Positions 8,641 to 62,086 of a stretch of 64,000 bases of DNA are shown here, piece by piece (positions within the stretch are counted from its first letter, which is position 1; each line of letters opens with the position of its first letter). A program made the position numbers and the translations under genes. Source of the stretch: Corallochytrium limacisporum Hawaii (taxonomy: Eukaryota; Protista; Pluriformea); assembly GCA_002811645.1 (NCBI GenBank), contig PDIP01000040.1, forward strand, positions 63,123-127,122. Reading direction: 5' to 3'. A model generated the notes under the pieces. The model searched no databases, had not been told where the DNA came from, and saw only the letters and a list, made by a program, of their open reading frames with translations.

Positions 8641-9551
8641 ATCTTTGCGTACTTGGTTTTGCCCTTGCTCAACTTTCCTGGAAACTTGGTGATCACACCC
8701 TCAGCCCCTGAGCAATTTCTCTCTCTGTCGCCCTTCAAATGTCTGCATAGACGAACTCTCCGAGGAACACCAGCACTGCAGGAGAATCGCTTCGCCGTAC
8801 TTTGCCGCCCTTCCCGCACCACATTCGGCGGCATCTCCTTGCGCGATCACCTTCGAACATTCTGTGAGAAACTGTCCCGCATCCTCCTTCCGCAATTGGA
8901 AAATTTATATGGGATCCGTCATTTCTGTGATGGGGACCTTTCTATCGTATCCATCATTACACACGTCTTTGACGGGCGGCCATTAGCCTTACCTTACCTC
9001 CCTGCATGGTGGCGGTCGAGGTGGGTCTCCCAGGCCAGAACAGCCACTTTTTCGGCCCGTGTCCCTACGGACACCCGCCGTAAAGGGTCCGTTGCCTGGG
9101 ATGCCCAGCATTTTCATAGAATAGCCACCGTGCCCACCCAAGAAAATTAGGCCCCCATAAATCGTAAACGGGGAGTCATCGTGGAATTTTTCGCATTTCC
9201 ACAGTGTGGGTGGACACCCTTCTAAGGCGCCCCCTAAGTCAAAGTGAAAGCATCAAAAGTCCCCTACGGGCCCCGGGGGCGGGGGGGGAATGGCCTCAGA
9301 CAAATCAGGCCATCTGGTCCACAGATCTATACACAAGTTCGATCGGGGCCCGCGGAAAGAGGGGAGCCCCCTCTCCTGTACTGTATTCGCTGCGTAAACA
9401 CTTGGCAAAAACAGAATCCTCCGGATCGGACTTGGTCATTCTTCACCGCAGAACAGAAGGGACAAATACCACACACACGCAAGGGTATTTATGGTAGTGG
9501 CAAGACTTTGACTAATCTCTTGAAAGTCTATCGAAGTCAAAAGCGACCTCA

Positions 9552-17322: not shown

Positions 17323-18715
17323 TTATTGTTGTGCGCCGCTGCAAAACAGGTCTCTTGCCATCAGGATGTGCTGTTCAAGACGATCTAGGTCAACCACCAT
17401 GTCAGAGTCACGTATCCTGACCCTTAAGGGTTCGCACACTTCCTTATTGCCACCATACCTCTCGTCCCAGTTCGTACACTCATTCTTCATCACACTTAAG
17501 ATCTGTTTGTCGATTTCGCCAGTGCGTGGACCGACAGGAATATGGCCCTCACTAAAAATATAGCCACGTATTAAATTCTCAGTAGACTTCCCGAACACAT
17601 CATCTGCAATCAGCACACCTACTTCAACAGCAACAGTGCTGGGGTGGGCCCACAGCAGGTTTACGACTTGGGAGCCGTGCGGTGTCACCAAAATATCAGA
17701 CTGAAACTGCATCGCTTGCTCCTCTACAGTCATGTCGCTATTTGTTGTTACTATTTGAACCGGCTCACTGCTAAGCCTGTTCAAGAGCTGAATCACGTCA
17801 TCAAGGTTTGTGAATCTCCGGGCAGAGTTTCGTGATTTCGTGCGTTGCACAAGTTTGATCCGAGGATTGCATTCCACGGAATGACTGGGATCTTCTTTCA
17901 ATCCCAGATATGCGCGTAATTCGCTTGCATACTCGTTAGCAAAATGTGGCATCCATATCCCAGCCCGAGGTGAGATGTAAACTCGTTCAAAACAACTGCG
18001 TGTCCCAAAATCCTTTCCAAAGGCCAATATGTTCCCAGTGTGATAAAGATGCCGCCAGAAGAATCGCATCGTACTGGGACATTTGGGAAAGCCCTATACA
18101 ATTATGAAATGCTATGTTATCGATGATACCTGGCTGAACTTTATCCCGTACCATGCTGAGGTGAAATAATTTCCCCATACCTTTGACCCAGTGACTCAAA
18201 TTATGATTGTTGGAAGGGAGTCGCCAGCAGTCGACGAGAAAGGTGGTACCTGGAACAAATGCCAAATCAAAGCGCTCCAAAAGATCAGCTTTCTTCATTC
18301 CCCTGTAGTCCATGGGCTTGCCGCGTCGAAAATTGTACTCAGGAAACGGCTTTATGCCCATAAAATAGTCTTCTGTCGAGATGCAAACGTTTTCCATTGT
18401 TACATAAGGGGATTCATCATATATGCCAAGGACCTCACCTCGGAACAGCGACAGTCGCTTTTCTAAGTTTCTACTCCATGTTGGCGGTACCGAAAAATAA
18501 TCTATCCTATCTTCTTTGAACCTAGTGGAAAACTGATTCGCCAGGTGACGCAAGTATCTGGCTTTCTCATTGTCCACAGCATCATGCGGCGATACAAATG
18601 TGAATGGCCAGCTTGAAACAGATAGTTCAAGATTTGTAAGGGAAAAAATGGCCACTGTGATAAAACCTACAACTGCAAAAAGGATTTTCCGCGCATGCAG
18701 CCGCCTACAACGCAT
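17323..18715 (-). pseudogene. GT61-like glycosyltransferase split by a +1 frameshift near 18007-18010
   Basis: Overlapping ORFs 17987-18715 (TM anchor, N..HW) and 17323-18069 (CFE, RRFTNLDDV, EEQA, ILVTPHGSQVVN) form one GT61-like protein colinear with the paralogue at 30736. Confidence 0.65.
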
Positions 18716-30735: not shown

Positions 30736-32613
30736 ATGAGTCGCTACCAGAGGCTCAACACAGAGGAGCCCAACGGCCTTCACATCTCTATGGGTGGTGA
30801 TGGACGGCGCGGCATGGCCCGTGCGGCTCGGCATAGCATCGGTGGGGTCCACCGCAGTACGATTCTCCGTATCGGTGGTGGTTTGTTGGCTGTAATCGCT
30901 CTCTACACCGTGGTACGCTCTTTCTCAAGCGACTCTGGTCCCACGGGAGCTCAGGGCATGGACCACAATGGTCCCCCCGGATGGGAGGCTGAGGCTGACC
31001 GCCAGAGGTGTTCGGAAATGCTTGGTGTGACAGGTCCTGGTGAGATGGTTCAGACCGAGACCACGACCTCGACCGAGGTCACGACCTCTACCGAGACCCA
31101 GACCGAGACCACGACCCAGACCGAGACCACGACCATTAATGATAAAGAGACCGCGACCACCGGTGCTGGGGCTGGCACTCCGGCTCGTTTCGATTTGGAC
31201 TGGAACGGTGGCAACGGTCCCCTGAAAAAGTTGAGGATCAAGGAGGTGTATCCGGATGCCAAACATCCTCGGGATTCCCGTGCCTTTTTATGGGATAATG
31301 ATCCGGTCAAGATGCGTATCTGCCAGTACTATGATGTCTGTATCAGGAATCAGTCTGGAGAGCAGTTGCTGATCATGCACATGGAGAACGAGGGCGTGCG
31401 GGACGATTACAGAGCCGTGGCAGAAAACTGCAATGCGCCAGGTGCTAAGAAGCTTCCGCAATGCAAGTGTTTTCAGGGTAACCTGATACAGACTTTTGTC
31501 AGCGCGAAGGAAGTGAACGATTTATACAGGGACAAGAAACTGGTATACCAACCGGGACATACCTTCCTAGTCGATACTTTCACCCCCAAGCACAACTTCG
31601 GACATTGGTTCGAAAAAATGGGTCAGGTCTGGACCATTCTACACAAGTATAAGGATGAGTATGACCTGGGTGAGGTGGATCAGCTTTTCTTCGATAAGGA
31701 CTCGGAGCCAGACTCAGATTCTTTTAAGAACCTCTATGACTTCGCCATGAGTGAGGCCGAACTGGAGAATGTACCAAAGCTTTGGGAAGGGGAAATTAAG
31801 GAACGTGACACTGGTATCTGCTTTGAAAAGATTTCCATGCCGTGGACCCCTTCGAAGACCACGGGTCCGGATGACATGGGTTTCCTCAAAAGTGCGCTCT
31901 TGGAGTTCTTGAAGATCGAACCCAAGAAGCATGAGGAAAGACCTGATGCCGTATTGCTGTACCGTACTCAGTCTCAAGGTGAAAGAATTACGGGCGCCCG
32001 TCGTATGAAAAATCAGGACGAGGTCATGAAAATCATGGAGGAATACGGATACAACGTGCGCAGTGAGACCATCAACGAAAATACCCCTTTCGTCGAGCAG
32101 GCACGCCTCTTTGCTGATACTCCGCTGATTGTGTCTAGTCACAGCAGTCAGTTGCTCAACATGGCATTTGGTCAAGAGAACTACCAGGTGATTGAATCCG
32201 TGCCCATTATTCTCAACATGGACTTCAAAGAATTGGCAGTAGAGAGTGGTTTGAACTACTACTACGCCATTGCCGGGGTCAATGGCATGGATTTAGAAAG
32301 AGACCCGATAGACGGTTACATTGAGGAGTGTGTCGATGAGTGGCTGAAACTGGGACCTGAGGACTATGACGCCTACCGCGCTATCTTTGAAAAAGAGGTT
32401 TGCAACAAGAACAAGACCCCAAAATTATTCGACTACTGGCTCGAGATCAAACAGGGAGACTTTAATGCCAACTTGGACAATGTTGAGCATGCGATCGCCC
32501 TGGCCACTGCTCGGCTCAAGAAAGCCTTTGGAGATGAATTTGTCAAGGGCAAGCCTAACAGTCCTTACACGTTCGACCTCGAGACGCCGGATGATGGAAA
32601 CCCGGACGCGTAG
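30736..32613 (+). CDS. GT61-like type II membrane glycosyltransferase with Thr-rich stem
   Basis: First ATG 30736; TM anchor, HNFGHWFE, ICFEK, RRMKNQDEV, FVEQARLF..LIVSSHSSQLLNMAF..VIE, typical of GT61 (DUF563)-like enzymes. Confidence 0.75.
   Translation: MSRYQRLNTEEPNGLHISMGGDGRRGMARAARHSIGGVHRSTILRIGGGLLAVIALYTVVRSFSSDSGPTGAQGMDHNGPPGWEAEADRQRCSEMLGVTGPGEMVQTETTTSTEVTTSTETQTETTTQTETTTINDKETATTGAGAGTPARFDLDWNGGNGPLKKLRIKEVYPDAKHPRDSRAFLWDNDPVKMRICQYYDVCIRNQSGEQLLIMHMENEGVRDDYRAVAENCNAPGAKKLPQCKCFQGNLIQTFVSAKEVNDLYRDKKLVYQPGHTFLVDTFTPKHNFGHWFEKMGQVWTILHKYKDEYDLGEVDQLFFDKDSEPDSDSFKNLYDFAMSEAELENVPKLWEGEIKERDTGICFEKISMPWTPSKTTGPDDMGFLKSALLEFLKIEPKKHEERPDAVLLYRTQSQGERITGARRMKNQDEVMKIMEEYGYNVRSETINENTPFVEQARLFADTPLIVSSHSSQLLNMAFGQENYQVIESVPIILNMDFKELAVESGLNYYYAIAGVNGMDLERDPIDGYIEECVDEWLKLGPEDYDAYRAIFEKEVCNKNKTPKLFDYWLEIKQGDFNANLDNVEHAIALATARLKKAFGDEFVKGKPNSPYTFDLETPDDGNPDA
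31051..31134 (+). repeat. Imperfect 18-nt coding tandem repeat (xTETTT stem)
   Basis: cagaccgagaccacgacc-like units encoding QTETTTSTEVTTSTETQTETTTQTETTT. Confidence 0.8.
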
Positions 32614-45308: not shown

Positions 45309-46539
45309 AAAGCAGCAGAGACCGAGAGCGCCAAGACTTTCCCCGCCATCCTCTCTTAGCTCAGAGTTCTGGGAATGGTGCCCGGCTGCAAAGTATCCAC
45401 CCGTTCGGTACTGAATATGCTGTCGATGATAGGTATCCTCGGGCAACTTCATCCCGCAGGCCCCTCCTTGTCTCTCTCTCTCCCCCTTTCCCTGCGTCTC
45501 TTGTCGGACTTTGGAGCCGCTGTTTTACGGGCAGTGAAGAAAATTTTTCGCCGCCGCTTTTTAATCTCTCTCTTGGTTCCTCCTCCTCCCCACCCCCAGA
45601 GAATCTAAGCAAAGGGTATGCGTTGTCTTCCCATTGAATGACATCAGCAATTTAATACTGAATATATTAAGAAAAATAGACAGAAATTGACGAAGAATGC
45701 TAAAGTGCGCCAAATGCGTTGCCGTCCGGCGGGGGGTTTTTAAGAGAAAGGAAATGGGGGAAGGTAGCGAATCAATCGTTGGGTCCACGGGGGAAGGAGG
45801 CAACATTTCTCCACCAATCGCGAAGGAATCTTGCCTCTCTCCCCGCTCCACACTGGTCCGCCGGTGAGACTGGGTTGCCACTGAGTGACTGCATCATAGT
45901 AAATAACCTACAAACTTTTCCCAGGGAGGGGAGGAGAAAGGGAAGGGGGGGAGCCGATAAAGGAGACGACGTGAATCCCGAAAAATAAAAATGGTGTGCG
46001 GGGGCTGTGTGCTTGAGGTTTAGCCACCAAAGCTCTCCCTCCTGCTCCTCCGCCCCACAAAGGCAGTTCAAAATACACCGCTGTTCGCCCGGCCCTCCAC
46101 GGGGCAGAACGACGCGAGAAAGGGAAACAGGAAAAAGGGAACAACAACAACGGACAACTCTCCTCTTCCCCATGCCAGTGGTTTTATATAGTGAATGTAT
46201 TGGATTCAAGGGAAAGGGTCCCCCCCCGGGGGGGGGATCTTGAGCGCCGTCACTGACCGCTCTGTGGGGTAGCGCCATTGTCAGCGGTAACAGGGAACGG
46301 TGGCACCTGGCTTTTGGAACTCTTGAACTTTTCCCTCCATTTTAGTGGCAACGCTAGAATTTTGTAATAAAATACGTAACCATCCGAACCCGGCAATTTT
46401 CTTGATTTGTTTGCTTGAAATATGGGTTACGGGTTGTTGGAAACGAACGCACGCTGTTTGCTATGGTCGTGAAGGGATATAGAGGGTATTTGAAAGTTGA
46501 CGATCAATGAAATGAGTAAGAATCGAAGGTAACTATTAA

Positions 46540-54056: not shown

Positions 54057-57000
54057 ATGTCGGTATTACGAATTGGAGGAAGTCCACTAGGGTGGCTCTC
54101 CAGACTGCTAGTACTACTACTCGCTCTCACGACGAGTGGTACGCATGCGTACAAGGCAGTCTTTGCCTGGTTAGGTATGGGTGATGACAACACAGCCACG
54201 ATTGAAAACAGACTCACAACGGGGTCGGGAAGGATCCATGGCGAGCGGTCAGCCATGTGCTTCCAGCTGGGCAGACCTCACTATCTGATGTTCATTCGTA
54301 GAGGATCACCAGAGCGGGCGTCACTGCTCAGTGCCGTCGATATTCATTCCTACAGAGAAGGAAGACTGGAATCCTTATGGAATAGTGTAGGGTCGATGTC
54401 CTACTTTGCAAATGAAGATGTGCTCCTCGCAGAACCCGGTTCGACATTTTCGAAACATAGCGACGATGTTGGTGACGACAACAATCAGGATAGGGAGCCT
54501 GAGGGCTATCCTGTGGTGCTTCGCTCGTTATTATCGGCATCAACAACAAACCTGCTTCTAGATCGGTATATTGACAGCTTGGAAGACAATAGAGATGTGG
54601 CAGACTCGAATTGTGACCCAACCGTAGACCCGGAATGTGATCCACTAGAAACAGAGGTGCCTGTAGCCGGCCGGGACTTCCGGGGCAAGGCAGGCAATGT
54701 CTCCGAGTCGAACGATGAAGACCAATACCAGGGCGAGAGCATCTTGCTGTGGCTCTACGATGTAGTGGCTGGCGATAGTGAAGATGTTGCAACCGAAGAC
54801 GTGGTTGACTCCATGCTCTACGCAGCAGCTGGGGGATCATCTACCGCCGGACGCCCAGACGGGTCAAAACATGGCAAGCGGCCAGCAGTGGAGCACATAG
54901 ACACTGAACCTACATGGATGCAAGTTGCTCAGAAGTACTGGCTTCCCGACGATCGATTAAGTGACAGAGGACTGATGGACATCATCCAGCAGTTTGAGTC
55001 ACTGGACGACAACTATCTGTTGGGCGGGATGGAAGAGATTTTGCAGGATGGCAAACCGCTATCAAATGCTGATATAGAGCACAAGACATTGACCAACAGT
55101 GAGGGAGCGTTGATCGCAATCTTCCCTGAGAGCGACAATCTACAGGCCGTCCCGAGCAAAATGGCAACGGTCAAGCAAAGAACGTTAAAGAATAGTGCCT
55201 ACGCTGCAAACAGCGGGGGCACAAACCAACACACACATGAAGACCATCATGACGACAAGTCGATGGACGCCGAAGACCCAAATCTAGGAGACTTTGGGTC
55301 GGCATCAGCTTTGCTGCACCCTTCGTTCTACTACGAGGAATCACGTAGCGGCAATAGCGCTGCCAAGTTCCAAAACAAGCTGATCTACTATTTGTATGAT
55401 GTGCGATCATCAAAGATGCCTGGTGGCAATAGTGAGTACGAGAAAGAAACCAACGTTAAGCTACGCAAGACGATCAAGGACACCGAACCGTTACATGTCT
55501 ACCCTTTGCCACAGCTCTTCCCAACGATTGCTGCTGCCTTCGACTCACTGCTGCCGGAGACCGTGCGGATGAATCTGGAGGCTTCGATTGCGGTAGCGCG
55601 TTATTCGATGATCGTGCCGGACTTGGCTCGTAGAATTCAAGCCAGTCACCGACTGAGCAATCTCGGCATGCATAGTCCTAGTGAAATCAGATTCCGTCAG
55701 CGGGCCGCTTTGGTGCATGAAGTACTGCTTGGAGCGCGGGTCGAGGTACAGGGGTATGCCGCTGTGGAATCCAGTGTATTGATCGGACACCAGGACATCC
55801 TCACATTTGATCTCTACCAGACCTTGGCAGGGAAGTTGCCGCTGGGTCATCTGGCTAAGTATGGGCCATTGCGCATGTCACTGCAAATGCGATGTACAGG
55901 AGATGTGAAGGCAATGATCAACCTTGTGGTCCAAGTCTTCCAACATGGCAGGAACCAATTGAGCACTGCGGAACGCAGCGAGTTCAAGTCACTGATATCT
56001 TCCTTGGTACGCTTTGGCCTGGTCGACTTGCAACTTGATCTGGACAGTGGCACGCGACAGGTAATGGAGGACTATGCGAAGGAGGCCCAGGAGACTCTCC
56101 AAGTGTTCGGTGTGTGTCGCAAAGCCCGCAGAGCTGAGCCTAACCGCGAGCTTTCGATGGATACTCAAACTCCATGTCGACAGGATTTGGATGTTTTCTT
56201 GTGGGAGGACAAAAAGGGTGGTAAGTCAAACAGTGGGCACCGTTGGAAGAATGCCAACGAGGCAAACGAAAACGATCTCATGAAGGTGACCACCGTGATG
56301 CGTACAATTGATGCCACTCCAGCCTTTATTTCTCGGCTCATGGATGCATATATTGCGCTTCTGACCGTTGCGGAGAGGAGTCTGGCAATTGCAACGGATC
56401 TAGATCTTGCACAATATAAGCAGAAGCGCTTGATCGGCGAAGTAGTGGCTGTGCAGGCTTTGGACCTCCGTGGTAACGTCGTACCTTTCCATGCGACGCA
56501 GTGCTTTAAGGGACCTCTGCCAGCGGCCCCCACTCTACTTTTTATCTCTCGTCTGACCTTCTTTTCCACCATGGCTGTAGTGGCGGCGTCCGCGTTTTTG
56601 ATCTACCTCTTTGTCGGTCATACGCTGTACATCTCACGACTGGCTCTGCCGCATCGGAGGCAGGACGATGGCCTCTTGCACCCCCGTCGACGCGGAGAAG
56701 AGGAATACGATGGCGTTCCAGACGACGCCCGTTGGCTGCGTACCACGCGTCTGAACTTGACACTGCACTTTTTCTATTTCTGGCCTGAGTTCATCTTTGG
56801 TGCTCACCCGAATCTGCCGTCCATCTTTGGTCATGTGGATGAGATGGGGCGAGAAGACATCAACGTCAACGAAGCCACTGGGCCCGAGATGTCGGGCACA
56901 AGCGCCAATGGGGATGCAACTGGTGGCCAAGGGGATACCCAGTCAAATGTTGAGGACCCTCTTGATCATGATGACGACGACGATTCATCATCTACGGACA

Positions 57001-57371
57001 CTATGCTACCGTACCTACCGCCTCTGCTCACCAATGCACAGTCGTCCGTCAACGATGGCTTTCATCATACACCGGCGACATCCAGCAGCGCCCCGAACGA
57101 AAGCACAGCAAGTGGCGTCGCTGAAAATGGTTATGACAACGGCACGCTGACATCTCTGCGGAATCGTCGCACACCACGCCTCAACTCAGGCCTTGCGGTC
57201 ATTCGGGAAAGCCGCACAGACGCTAGCGCCGTCTCCGTAGGCTCAGAACTCCACCACAACCTCCGCGAGAGCATGACATATGACGGTACGCAGGGTCGGG
57301 ACTCTGCATCCGTGAGCCGTGGTCGCCGTACTACCGCCCGCAACGCACTGGAGGCTATACGAAGGCTATGA
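54057..57371 (+). CDS. Large uncharacterised membrane protein (signal peptide, C-terminal TM helices)
   Basis: About 1100-aa ORF; hydrophobic N-terminus RLLVLLLALTTSG, acidic luminal region, TM segment FFSTMAVVAASAFLIYLFVG, disordered tail. Confidence 0.75.
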   Translation: MSVLRIGGSPLGWLSRLLVLLLALTTSGTHAYKAVFAWLGMGDDNTATIENRLTTGSGRIHGERSAMCFQLGRPHYLMFIRRGSPERASLLSAVDIHSYREGRLESLWNSVGSMSYFANEDVLLAEPGSTFSKHSDDVGDDNNQDREPEGYPVVLRSLLSASTTNLLLDRYIDSLEDNRDVADSNCDPTVDPECDPLETEVPVAGRDFRGKAGNVSESNDEDQYQGESILLWLYDVVAGDSEDVATEDVVDSMLYAAAGGSSTAGRPDGSKHGKRPAVEHIDTEPTWMQVAQKYWLPDDRLSDRGLMDIIQQFESLDDNYLLGGMEEILQDGKPLSNADIEHKTLTNSEGALIAIFPESDNLQAVPSKMATVKQRTLKNSAYAANSGGTNQHTHEDHHDDKSMDAEDPNLGDFGSASALLHPSFYYEESRSGNSAAKFQNKLIYYLYDVRSSKMPGGNSEYEKETNVKLRKTIKDTEPLHVYPLPQLFPTIAAAFDSLLPETVRMNLEASIAVARYSMIVPDLARRIQASHRLSNLGMHSPSEIRFRQRAALVHEVLLGARVEVQGYAAVESSVLIGHQDILTFDLYQTLAGKLPLGHLAKYGPLRMSLQMRCTGDVKAMINLVVQVFQHGRNQLSTAERSEFKSLISSLVRFGLVDLQLDLDSGTRQVMEDYAKEAQETLQVFGVCRKARRAEPNRELSMDTQTPCRQDLDVFLWEDKKGGKSNSGHRWKNANEANENDLMKVTTVMRTIDATPAFISRLMDAYIALLTVAERSLAIATDLDLAQYKQKRLIGEVVAVQALDLRGNVVPFHATQCFKGPLPAAPTLLFISRLTFFSTMAVVAASAFLIYLFVGHTLYISRLALPHRRQDDGLLHPRRRGEEEYDGVPDDARWLRTTRLNLTLHFFYFWPEFIFGAHPNLPSIFGHVDEMGREDINVNEATGPEMSGTSANGDATGGQGDTQSNVEDPLDHDDDDDSSSTDTMLPYLPPLLTNAQSSVNDGFHHTPATSSSAPNESTASGVAENGYDNGTLTSLRNRRTPRLNSGLAVIRESRTDASAVSVGSELHHNLRESMTYDGTQGRDSASVSRGRRTTARNALEAIRRL

Positions 57372-57880
57372 GAATGCTTGTATAGCACAACGATAATTTT
57401 GGCTTGAAAATTAGAATTGTATCTTTAATCTACCATCATAGCCGACACCGAAGTTTACCCTTCGTCTGGCCTCCCATTCTCCCGTCTTCCTCTCCCCCCC
57501 CCCCATGCCCTCAGAGGGGCCGGGGGGAGGGGGGGGCCTGCGGCGCGCGAAATGAGGAGGGGCCACACGCACTCTTGCGAACAATGCGAACTGTACGAAA
57601 TGCAGGCGGCGTCCCGTGCTTGCTACCATCCCCTTGTCTTCTTTGGCCTCCGAAATGAATGTATCTTTGAGTTCCTTGAAATGATGAAGTCAAGTCCAAC
57701 TAAATTGTATAAAAAGTTCGATTTTCACAGTGTACTCACGGTGATCGATATGAATACAATAACAAACATAGGAAACACGCGTAACGCAAAGCGTCGCCAT
57801 ACAGGAAACCATGGTGTAAACCAAAGCTTTCGTGGAATATTCATTGTAGTTTGTTTTAGAGATATTTCATTCAAATAAAA

Positions 57881-60004
57881 ATGACAGCTGAAGCGCAGTA
57901 TGAACGCGCGCGCATGGACTTGGGGGATGTGATTCAGCAATCCGGTGGCAGCCCCCGAGCATGGGTTTTGCCAGTTCAACACGAGTATGCAAAGGGCACG
58001 GGGGACAACCTGGGAAATCTGAAACCTCGGGAAGCTTACGTGGTCCTGAAAGCACACCATCGCCAAATCATGGAGGTTGGTAATGCTCAATTTGGAAAAC
58101 CGACGCGGCTTGCAAGTCCCGTCATTGGTTCTCAGAACATATTTATCACCCGATCCGACTATCCTTTCGACTTATATGAACTTGAGGACGGATATCAATG
58201 GCGACGAGCCTCCAGTGAAGTAAAAACCATTGGAAACGTTGAAGTCAAAACACAGCAGGACGGAACACACGATAGCCAGCTCGGTTGGATCAGTCGACGA
58301 ATAATGACTCTCCGAACACCTCTTTTCCTCAATGATCACATTCACATTGTCATTTACGCCCGTGATTTCCGCCAACGCTACCAAAAGATTACCGATTTGG
58401 TCCCTTGTGCTAAACCTGAGGGCTACACTACCATAAAGAATAAGGACCCTGACCATACCGGAGTCGGACGAGGTCGCGCACCATACCGCACAAAAGCCAT
58501 CAAAGCACTGCAAGACCAGTTGTTGGCGGCAGAAAAGTCAAAGAAAAAGGAACATAAGATGATGGGTGGTCACTCACAACAGCATATTATCCAGAGTGTG
58601 GCCCAACCCGCGATGTCGCATGGTCCGCATGGGATGGCCGGCGCAGAGTCGAGTAGCCATGCCAAGAAGATGAGCATTAAACAGGCCGAAAAGTTGCAGC
58701 GGGAAGCTGACCGCGAGCGGAAGAGACAGGAGCGGTACGCACAGGAGATGGCCGAAAAGGTAGTCCTCAAGCCCCGGCCGCCGCCTGAGAACGCCAAGCA
58801 CCGCGCACCACCTCCGACGGCAATCCACGGTCGTATGCCGGTGTCTCTGCTGGCCCTGACGAAGACTCTGAATCGCCAGGAGGAGCGCATGGCAGAATTG
58901 GGCATCCCACGCCTACTTGATGCCGAAGATTCACAGAAGACAGCCACGTCGTCGCAGCAACCGGGAGCGAAAAAGGACTTGGTTACTGAATTGAAACAAG
59001 AGCTAGAAATGATGGCACCGACGGTGCCCGAAAAGCCCCGCACGGCCATGAACCGATTTCGCAAGATTCAGTACAGGGCTCTGGCACGCAAGTTTCCGCA
59101 CCTGGGGGTCACAGAGGTCAGCGGGGAGATCAGCCGCCTGTGGCGTGAACTGCCTGACGACGAGCGCCGAAAGTATTACCGTCAATACGAGGCAGACCGC
59201 ATGCGTTACGAGCAGGAGATTCGGCGCTACGAATTGGAGCTAAAACTCTACAACGAGAAGCGTGACCAGGTTATTGAGACTGCTAAGCGGGAGGCGCGCT
59301 TGCACCAGCTCAGGTCGCTGGAGTCGAGCATCGAACCGTTGACCAAGAAGGACCGTCTGCCTGGCGACTACGCTCTGACTCTGTCGGAGGCCATCAAGGA
59401 AGAGGTCGACGAGGCTGATGTAGGAGACGACGAGCGTGAGTGGACCGTGAAGCATATTGCCACTGCCAGATATCGCAAGTATCATGACCTTATGTTCGAT
59501 CTGCTCTACGGTGAAGTGAATGGGGAGGTCGATGATGATGTCGAGGACGATGATGAGAACGAAGAAGACGAAGACGTCAAGCCGGCGGAAAAGCGCGCTA
59601 GGGTGGTCAAGTCTGCCCGCATCAACGCCCATGACGAAAGCGCACCCTACGACTACCAGCATCTGCCTCGGAAACTCGAAGAAGACCGGACCACGCTCCT
59701 TGAGCGCATCCAGCACCGTACCACTGGCCTACAGCGCGAGATTGAGGCGGCCCGTGGCACGGATAAACGCTACACCCAGGACCATGCTAAGGTCAATCAT
59801 GACCTAGACATGAACTTGAGCCGCATTAAGACCGCAGACAGTGTGGAAGAGCTGGATGCCATTAGCCGTGACCTGGAGCTGAAGCCTGGTAATCCTTACT
59901 CACGTGGATTCCACGTCGTCCCCAAGCCCAGCATGACCCAGGACCAGGTCTACGACCTCGACAGTGGTGAAGATCACAAGTCCACTCTGATGATCTTAAC
60001 ATAA
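57881..60004 (+). CDS. SMARCE1/BAF57-like HMG-box protein with N-terminal CG-1-like domain
   Basis: HMG box PEKPRTAMNRF..EISRLWRELPDDERRKYYRQYEADR; WTVKHIATARYRKYHDLM resembles the SMARCE1 NHRLI motif (SMKHTATARFQRNHRLI), followed by a coiled coil. Confidence 0.8.
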   Translation: MTAEAQYERARMDLGDVIQQSGGSPRAWVLPVQHEYAKGTGDNLGNLKPREAYVVLKAHHRQIMEVGNAQFGKPTRLASPVIGSQNIFITRSDYPFDLYELEDGYQWRRASSEVKTIGNVEVKTQQDGTHDSQLGWISRRIMTLRTPLFLNDHIHIVIYARDFRQRYQKITDLVPCAKPEGYTTIKNKDPDHTGVGRGRAPYRTKAIKALQDQLLAAEKSKKKEHKMMGGHSQQHIIQSVAQPAMSHGPHGMAGAESSSHAKKMSIKQAEKLQREADRERKRQERYAQEMAEKVVLKPRPPPENAKHRAPPPTAIHGRMPVSLLALTKTLNRQEERMAELGIPRLLDAEDSQKTATSSQQPGAKKDLVTELKQELEMMAPTVPEKPRTAMNRFRKIQYRALARKFPHLGVTEVSGEISRLWRELPDDERRKYYRQYEADRMRYEQEIRRYELELKLYNEKRDQVIETAKREARLHQLRSLESSIEPLTKKDRLPGDYALTLSEAIKEEVDEADVGDDEREWTVKHIATARYRKYHDLMFDLLYGEVNGEVDDDVEDDDENEEDEDVKPAEKRARVVKSARINAHDESAPYDYQHLPRKLEEDRTTLLERIQHRTTGLQREIEAARGTDKRYTQDHAKVNHDLDMNLSRIKTADSVEELDAISRDLELKPGNPYSRGFHVVPKPSMTQDQVYDLDSGEDHKSTLMILT

Positions 60005-60337
60005 TTCGGATAGTAATCAAAGTATTGAATGATTTTGATCGGTGGATTATTGGTATGTCGGTGAGCGTGTATTCAAAGGGATAAATGCAGTGATTCTTGC
60101 TTTTCTTTTTAAGAGATTTTCGATTTTTAAATTGGCTTGGATTCGTCTGAAGGCATGGCATCCCTAACCGGTATCTGTCTCTTCCGTTCTGGGTGCATGT
60201 GCGGAGCATGGAATGTTGAAGGAAAGAAGAAGTGGACAAATTTGAATCATGGTATGAAAGAGGGGACAGTGCGAAGGTAGATGAAAGTAAAGAACAGGTA
60301 CGCAAGGGCTTCAAACAATGCTAGGAGGCAAGTTTGG

Positions 60338-62086
60338 CTAAGCCTTTGGCCTCTTGGCATCCTTACCATCGCCGTTGGCAGCTCCGGCCGGAGGCGGGCG
60401 CTTCAGTCCGTTCGGCTTAATCTCTTCGGCACCTGCGACAAGTTCATCAAAGTTGGGAATTGTCTCATCGTCTCCCCTGTATGCCTCACCCTTTTCGGCA
60501 AAGTACCGCACGGCCCGCACACCTGGGTTCTTGGCCAAGTTCTTTCGCAGGATGTTCAGATCCACCTGTCCCTCAATGGTGCTAATATGCCGCTCGACTA
60601 CATAGCACACAAATTCGTCATACAGCAGACGCATGAGATGGAAGCTACCGAACGATGCCGCTGACCGCAGGGTCAGGTCCCGAATCACGAGTGAACAGTA
60701 GAAAGACCATTTCATGAGGAACTGTTTGGCCTCAACCTTCAGATCTGCGTTCTGTCCATACGGTACCAGCGACTTGTAGATCACACTCTGTAGCCAGAAC
60801 GCCCAACTGGTCAGCGTATTCTGCCGCTCGAGCTGCTGCTTCAGGCTCTGCTCAAAGTCCGATACCTGCTGATCTGTGCAACCGGTTACCCAGTGGGCCT
60901 GTTCCTGCAGGCTTGTGAAATCCACGCGGTTGAGGTCACTGAGCATCTGGCTGACCTGCTCCTCGTTCTGCAGCACAGCCTTAGCTGCCTGAGCAAGGTG
61001 GTTCAGCGATGTCAAGCGCCTCAGGGTCTGGCTGAACTGCACCACTGCTTTGACCTTAATGTCCAGGAAATTCTGGGGCATGTTGCTGAGGGCATTGCGC
61101 AGCCATGACTCCAGGTTCTTGGCAAAATGACGAATGGCCTGGGTCAGAGCCACGGGTAGGGGCTTCAGCACGTCTGGAATCAGCATGTTCACCACCGCGT
61201 CATAAAAGATGAGATCAAAGTCATGCACGGCATGTTGGAAGGACGGTTGCTCAATGCAGCGAACAATCTTCTGAGGAACATTACGCCAGTAGGTGTTCCA
61301 AAGTCCTTCGACATCGCCGAAATTCGTGCGTGCCATGGTCTCTGCAATCCGACGGCTGTGATCCTTGTATACCTCTGCAAACTCGTCAATGTCTTCCTGG
61401 GTGGTTCCCGGTGGCCGCTTGAAGTTGGCAGGGAGGTATAAATCGGGCAGGCGGATGTCTGCCTGGATCTGGTAGTTCTGCTCGACTTCGTCGTCTTCTT
61501 CACCGTAGCCGGACTCTGAACGGTTCATGCCACCACCTGAGGGCTGATTGGCAGCCATCTGCTGGCTCAGGTGGCTCGTTGGTCGTACCCGAATTCCGTA
61601 GTAGTGGTATTTTGAGTTGCCCCTTGTTCCCAGACGCCGTGTCTTCAGGTTGGGGAACACACTGCGGATCAGCTTCCCGAATGAAGCGGCATTGACAGCA
61701 TCCAGGTTGTGCATGGTGCAGTGCTCGAGATAATGTGCATACAGAGTGCTACGCGGCAGACTCACGCCCTCTGCTGTCTCATAATTCTCTAGGAGCCATC
61801 CGACGGTAGCATTGTTGTTCGGTCCTTTGTTTGCGCCGGGAGTGCCTGGTCCGGAGTCACCACCAGCGTCTGCCGGGTGTGGAGGACCTGGATGACCGCG
61901 TGGAGGACCTGGTGGAGCCATACCAGGCCCCGCTCCGTAGCCCGGGGGTGCACCGCCACCGTACTGCTGCTGCTGCTGTCGCTGCTGCGCAGCGTAGGCG
62001 GCCGCGATGTCTGCTTGGGTCATGCCGTAGCCCTGTCCAAAATGACCGGGGTCATGAAAACCTCCGCCAAATTGTTCCTGATCCAT
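60338..62086 (-). CDS. RFX: RFX transcription factor, RFX1/2/3 type (DBD + dimerisation domain)
   Basis: WLLENYETAEGVSLPRSTLY..NAASFGKLIRSVFPNLKTRRLGTRGNSKYHYYGIR DBD; LRRLTSLNHLAQAA and IRDLTLRSAASFGSFHLMRLLYDE; first ATG 62086. Confidence 0.96.
   Translation of the reverse strand: MDQEQFGGGFHDPGHFGQGYGMTQADIAAAYAAQQRQQQQQYGGGAPPGYGAGPGMAPPGPPRGHPGPPHPADAGGDSGPGTPGANKGPNNNATVGWLLENYETAEGVSLPRSTLYAHYLEHCTMHNLDAVNAASFGKLIRSVFPNLKTRRLGTRGNSKYHYYGIRVRPTSHLSQQMAANQPSGGGMNRSESGYGEEDDEVEQNYQIQADIRLPDLYLPANFKRPPGTTQEDIDEFAEVYKDHSRRIAETMARTNFGDVEGLWNTYWRNVPQKIVRCIEQPSFQHAVHDFDLIFYDAVVNMLIPDVLKPLPVALTQAIRHFAKNLESWLRNALSNMPQNFLDIKVKAVVQFSQTLRRLTSLNHLAQAAKAVLQNEEQVSQMLSDLNRVDFTSLQEQAHWVTGCTDQQVSDFEQSLKQQLERQNTLTSWAFWLQSVIYKSLVPYGQNADLKVEAKQFLMKWSFYCSLVIRDLTLRSAASFGSFHLMRLLYDEFVCYVVERHISTIEGQVDLNILRKNLAKNPGVRAVRYFAEKGEAYRGDDETIPNFDELVAGAEEIKPNGLKRPPPAGAANGDGKDAKRPKA

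Follow-up and report, generated by a model that had tools for sequence, protein, structure and literature searches.

Does the N-terminal domain of a SMARCE-type protein in Corallochytrium limacisporum represent a newly acquired DNA reader of the CG-1 type, or an old part of the SWI/SNF remodeller? The question is raised by a gene in a 64,000-nucleotide stretch of C. limacisporum Hawaii (hereafter the window; GenBank assembly GCA_002811645.1, contig PDIP01000040.1, positions 63,123 to 127,122 of the forward strand), whose product had been read in a first-pass annotation as a SMARCE1/BAF57-like subunit fused to a CAMTA-type CG-1 domain. Our analysis indicates that the protein is probably an ancestral-type SMARCE (BAF57/Ssr4) subunit of SWI/SNF, with an N-terminal domain (N-domain) inherited as Ssr4-N and not gained by a new CAMTA fusion. 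That it is a SMARCE is highly probable; its N-domain is likely a divergent homologue of Ssr4-N, outside the membership of Pfam PF08549.

The open reading frame (ORF) at 57881-60004 is one conserved coding frame, because contigs of runs X3 (57691-59962) and X4 (57641-60500) each ran through the N-domain and the HMG box unbroken, with no joint, and the strain differences within the ORF (run X4) were mostly synonymous (10 of 13). The assembly is likewise bridged at the place where X1, a DNA run, has two overlapping contigs. As for the cDNA check that had been proposed, the X3 and X4 contigs, from runs only presumed to be RNA, do span the N-domain to the HMG box, which suggests that the two domains lie on one transcript.

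The C-terminal half carries the HMG box claimed earlier, which Pfam detected, followed by an NHRLI-like helix as in SMARCE of the holozoan type. Among Protein Data Bank (PDB) sequences, human SMARCE1 aligned in a single stretch over amino acids (aa) 379-546 (E 4.3e-7). With a 45-aa query devoid of the HMG box, the sole match among 177,635 PDB sequences was human SMARCE1 179-208 (E 0.61), located on the NHRLI helix and aligned to aa 514-543, where an NHRLI-like motif had been anticipated. Using a profile of the NHRLI region of 120 fungal Ssr4 proteins, we found aa 521-538 ranked first among 24 ORFs of the window (E 0.039, 4.7 bits). The NHRLI helix characteristic of SMARCE was therefore the sole or top match from the animal and the fungal side alike, with weak scores. 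The coiled coil also proposed earlier was discernible by eye at about aa 601-665, and the coiled coil of Rabaptin matched this region weakly (E 0.032, post-HMG query); a profile of the Ssr4 coiled coil gave no significant match to it. A homologue search with the C-terminal region returned only the protein itself (E 0.001). The linker between the N-domain and the HMG box contains 37 K/R versus 26 D/E. Within it, GRGRAP (aa 196-201) had been described as AT-hook-like. The canonical AT-hook consensus has flanking prolines; because these are missing here and Pfam gave no match, GRGRAP may at most be a degenerate AT-hook.

A DxxxW motif has been described for the fold subgroup comprising Ssr4-N, CG-1 and WOPR (PMC9252788), and D103-W107 of the N-domain conforms to it. 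Across the 24 ORFs, 13,393 aa in total, DG[YHF]xW has a single occurrence, which lies at aa 103 here; the probability of finding it by chance in the 375 aa N-terminal to the HMG box is about 0.002, for a motif that was picked after being seen. The distance from W107 to the next invariant glycine is 21 residues (20-25 in Ssr4), and the anchors downstream of DGYQW are collinear with those of Ssr4 (DG.W / R / Y). A model built from an Ssr4 alignment as input showed a helix plus five-strand fold, as in the Ssr4-N/CG-1/NAC/WOPR subgroup, a result that is partly circular. In DNA-pattern scans of metagenomes, 15 of 17 loci were Ssr4-like and 2 unrelated; scans for CAMTA gave 0, 0 and 8 loci, the 8 without a CG-1-like reading frame. 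On grounds of parsimony, the N-domain was more likely inherited with SMARCE than newly acquired.

Several results weigh against the assignment to SMARCE and Ssr4-N. Pfam PF08549 missed the N-domain yet matched 27/27 fungal cores, and a hidden Markov model built on 121 ascomycete Ssr4 cores failed to recover it; the reference set was narrow (ascomycetes, mostly Eurotiomycetes). The hhalign comparison with Ssr4 gave P 0.012, with 3 of 200 shuffles equally good, and scores of N-domain/Ssr4 alignments were reached by 12/250 and 9/250 shuffles. In whole-profile alignment to Ssr4, 269 of 2000 shuffles did equally well and the best site in the full protein lay outside the N-domain, and MAFFT, given whole Ssr4 proteins, aligned the N-domain with their NHRLI region instead. 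The single-sequence model of the N-domain had a predicted local distance difference test score (pLDDT) of 39.6, and fold searches with it were uninformative; the confident model came from the Ssr4 alignment without a scrambled control; and Ssr4 was not among the Foldseek matches listed. By eye, the six N-terminal blocks shared 21 of 56 letters with the hand-picked CG-1 blocks cited in the first-pass annotation; the corresponding count for one Aspergillus Ssr4 was 17 of 54. Finally, TFAM scored above SMARCE1 as the top match of the HMG region among PDB sequences.

The start of the N-domain (57998-58078, aa 40-66) resembles the lead-in of the Ssr4 NHRLI region (GD..LxPRE), a likeness that misled MAFFT and was scored as chance. 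Another stretch with a likeness to NHRLI, aa 40-51, was rejected (-0.1 bits versus 4.7 for aa 521-538).

Could the protein lie outside SWI/SNF, as an HMG20/BRAF35-like or stand-alone HMG factor with a coiled coil? Its HMG matches are generic, with TFAM first, the E value of the NHRLI match is just 0.61, and a longer post-HMG query (242 aa) did not recover SMARCE1 from PDB sequences; but the NHRLI-like segment was found independently via human SMARCE1 and fungal Ssr4 profiles, at the expected place after the HMG box, and we consider this explanation the least credible. Slightly less remote, though still very improbable, is that the N-terminal region holds a domain peculiar to this lineage and unrelated to these families, its motif resemblance being due to chance. 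Every direct sequence test was weak, and searches of 5.8 billion and 1.84 billion proteins returned no N-domain homologue besides the protein itself. Leads from the ESM Atlas were only unnamed or FHA-type (unnamed clusters 0.92 and 0.91, FHA 0.90, at most 0.86 without FHA) and were rejected for low shared-feature counts; NUDT18, the sole N-domain match in the PDB sequence search (E 0.53), was rejected as chance. Against coincidence, DG[YHF]xW occupies exactly the place of the Ssr4 domain in the ancestral SMARCE already published, and the downstream anchors are collinear and the model compatible.

The remaining alternative, which is unlikely, is that the N-domain works as a CG-1-type sequence-specific DNA reader, ancestral or CAMTA-derived, and directs the remodeller to promoter elements centred on CG. 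All six blocks on which the CG-1 proposal rested are present in the translation in the order given; blocks 1-2 are by eye nearer those CG-1 blocks than ascomycete Ssr4, the DxxxW motif is retained, and the N-domain is basic (net charge +4, versus -6 to +1 in 27 fungal Ssr4 cores). The proposed abundance of CnGn elements was also borne out: CCCCGGGG occurs 9 times in the window versus 1.32 expected (0 of 100 shuffles reached 9), and all copies but one lie beyond the 24 ORFs used. However, the CnGn runs lack the CGCG/CGTG core quoted for CG-1 and nothing ties them to this protein; whatever the reading of SMARCE, they are a candidate for a promoter or structural element in this genome. CG-1 carries a long basic insert after the tryptophan that appears to be missing here, and the spacing to the glycine suits Ssr4. 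The DxxxW motif also occurs in members of the family that are not believed to bind DNA (PMC9252788), and Ssr4-N of Schizosaccharomyces pombe has no DNA-binding face. The Pfam scan of the N-domain gave no family of any kind, CG-1 (PF03859) included, and no CG-1 chains were among the fold matches listed. Because Pfam family, homologue and credible PDB or Atlas match are all wanting and the single-sequence model is poor, CG-1 membership is not established; of the proposed fusion, the SMARCE1-like portion with HMG box and NHRLI-like helix is supported. An origin of SMARCE as a CG-1-type reader fused to HMG-NHRLI, with specific DNA binding persisting in this lineage, is unlikely. If true, the remodeller would have a built-in targeting domain resembling that of a transcription factor, the domain would survive in fungi as a degenerate Ssr4-N and have been lost in animals, and this basic, by-eye CG-1-like protein would be the test case for Ssr4-N function.

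The layout, for which the first-pass annotation knew of no parallel in the literature, has a published precedent. SMARCE of Capsaspora owczarzaki (PMC9170682) has an Ssr4-type N-terminal domain, an HMG box, an NHRLI region and a coiled coil; the same order of domains is predicted here, and the size is similar (legend numbering up to 689 there, 707 aa here). In Capsaspora, Pfam detects the Ssr4 domain automatically and there is a poly-Q tract, whereas in the present protein Pfam misses the domain and no poly-Q was seen. Fungal Ssr4 (PF08549 and PF20497; PDB 7k7v, 23cp) shares the predicted N-domain fold, the DG.W / R / Y anchors and an NHRLI-type helix, but has no HMG box, a neutral to acidic N-domain, an N-terminal extension with no visible counterpart here, and only 16-22% identity. 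Animal SMARCE1/BAF57 likewise has an HMG box, then an NHRLI helix and a probable coiled coil, but no N-terminal globular domain, its HMG match beginning at human residue 62. CG-1 of CAMTA likely belongs to the same fold subgroup, with the DxxxW motif and the by-eye block resemblance; unlike CAMTA factors, this protein showed no TIG, ankyrin or IQ domain in the Pfam scan.

As an inherited SMARCE, the protein would be anchored in the base module of the remodeller: if the solved fungal and human complexes are a guide, SMARCD would clamp its NHRLI helix, and its coiled coil would join the SMARCC-SMARCD bundle. No SMARCD or SMARCC gene was identified among the window ORFs. To judge from SMARCE1, the HMG box and basic linker may recognise bent or distorted DNA irrespective of its sequence. 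The N-domain may be a peripheral accessory module in contact with proteins or, weakly and non-specifically, with DNA, its likeness to CG-1 coming from the fold shared within the WRKY/GCM1 clan. The protein would be a second, very divergent case of the intermediate SMARCE reported for Capsaspora, and would support one opisthokont ancestor with Ssr4-N, HMG box and NHRLI, followed by loss of the N-domain in animals and of the HMG box in fungi. It would also show that Ssr4-N, termed Ascomycota-specific by PMC13580576, can be too divergent for Pfam to pick up and be overlooked. A basic version of this domain next to an HMG box makes a promising subject for DNA-binding tests.

Table 1. Features of the SMARCE-type gene and its upstream region (window positions).
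Feature	Position	Strand	Basis
SMARCE-type subunit ORF, uninterrupted, 707 aa	57881..60004	+	ORF call; contigs X3/X4; strain differences
N-terminal domain, aa 42-170, predicted Ssr4-N/CG-1-type helix-plus-sheet fold	58004..58390	+	
DGYQW, aa 103-107, DxxxW motif of the Ssr4-N/CG-1/WOPR subgroup	58187..58201	+	motif per PMC9252788
Basic low-complexity linker, aa 171-382	58391..59026	+	sequence; includes GRGRAP 58466-58483
HMG box, aa 383-451	59027..59233	+	PF00505, E 3.4e-14, above curated cut-off
NHRLI-like helix, aa 514-543	59420..59509	+	SMARCE1 match and Ssr4 profile
Probable coiled coil, about aa 601-665	59681..59875	+	by eye
C-run/G-run element, ~345 bases upstream of the ATG	57494..57536	.	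sequence

Upstream of the SMARCE gene, the element at 57494-57536 consists of a C11 run and a G-rich run forming an imperfect inverted repeat. The surrounding region (57407-57620) was without cover in the X3 and X4 contigs and was covered by X1, which has one extra C. Palindromic CnGn runs centred on CCGG (up to C12G5 and C7G12) were located at 9271, 32646, 36199, 43860 and 44350, with further ones at 46220, 50442, 53663 and 62788.

Compact and poor in introns, the window is a eukaryotic region of long single ORFs, and its genes include topoisomerase II, TAF4, Med20 and RFX. This gene structure, together with the HMG-bearing SMARCE, suggests a unicellular holozoan. The RFX transcription factor gene (60338-62086, minus strand; DNA-binding and BCD domains) is convergent with the SMARCE gene, with 333 bases between them. 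Immediately upstream of the SMARCE gene lies an ORF of 1104 aa (54057-57371, plus strand) with no Pfam match at E 1e-4. At 17323-18715 (minus strand), two same-strand ORFs of 242 and 248 aa overlap, the downstream one encoding glycosyltransferase 61; the two may be parts of a single gene, interrupted by an intron or a frameshift. A paralogue of this glycosyltransferase 61, of 625 aa, is encoded at 30736-32613.
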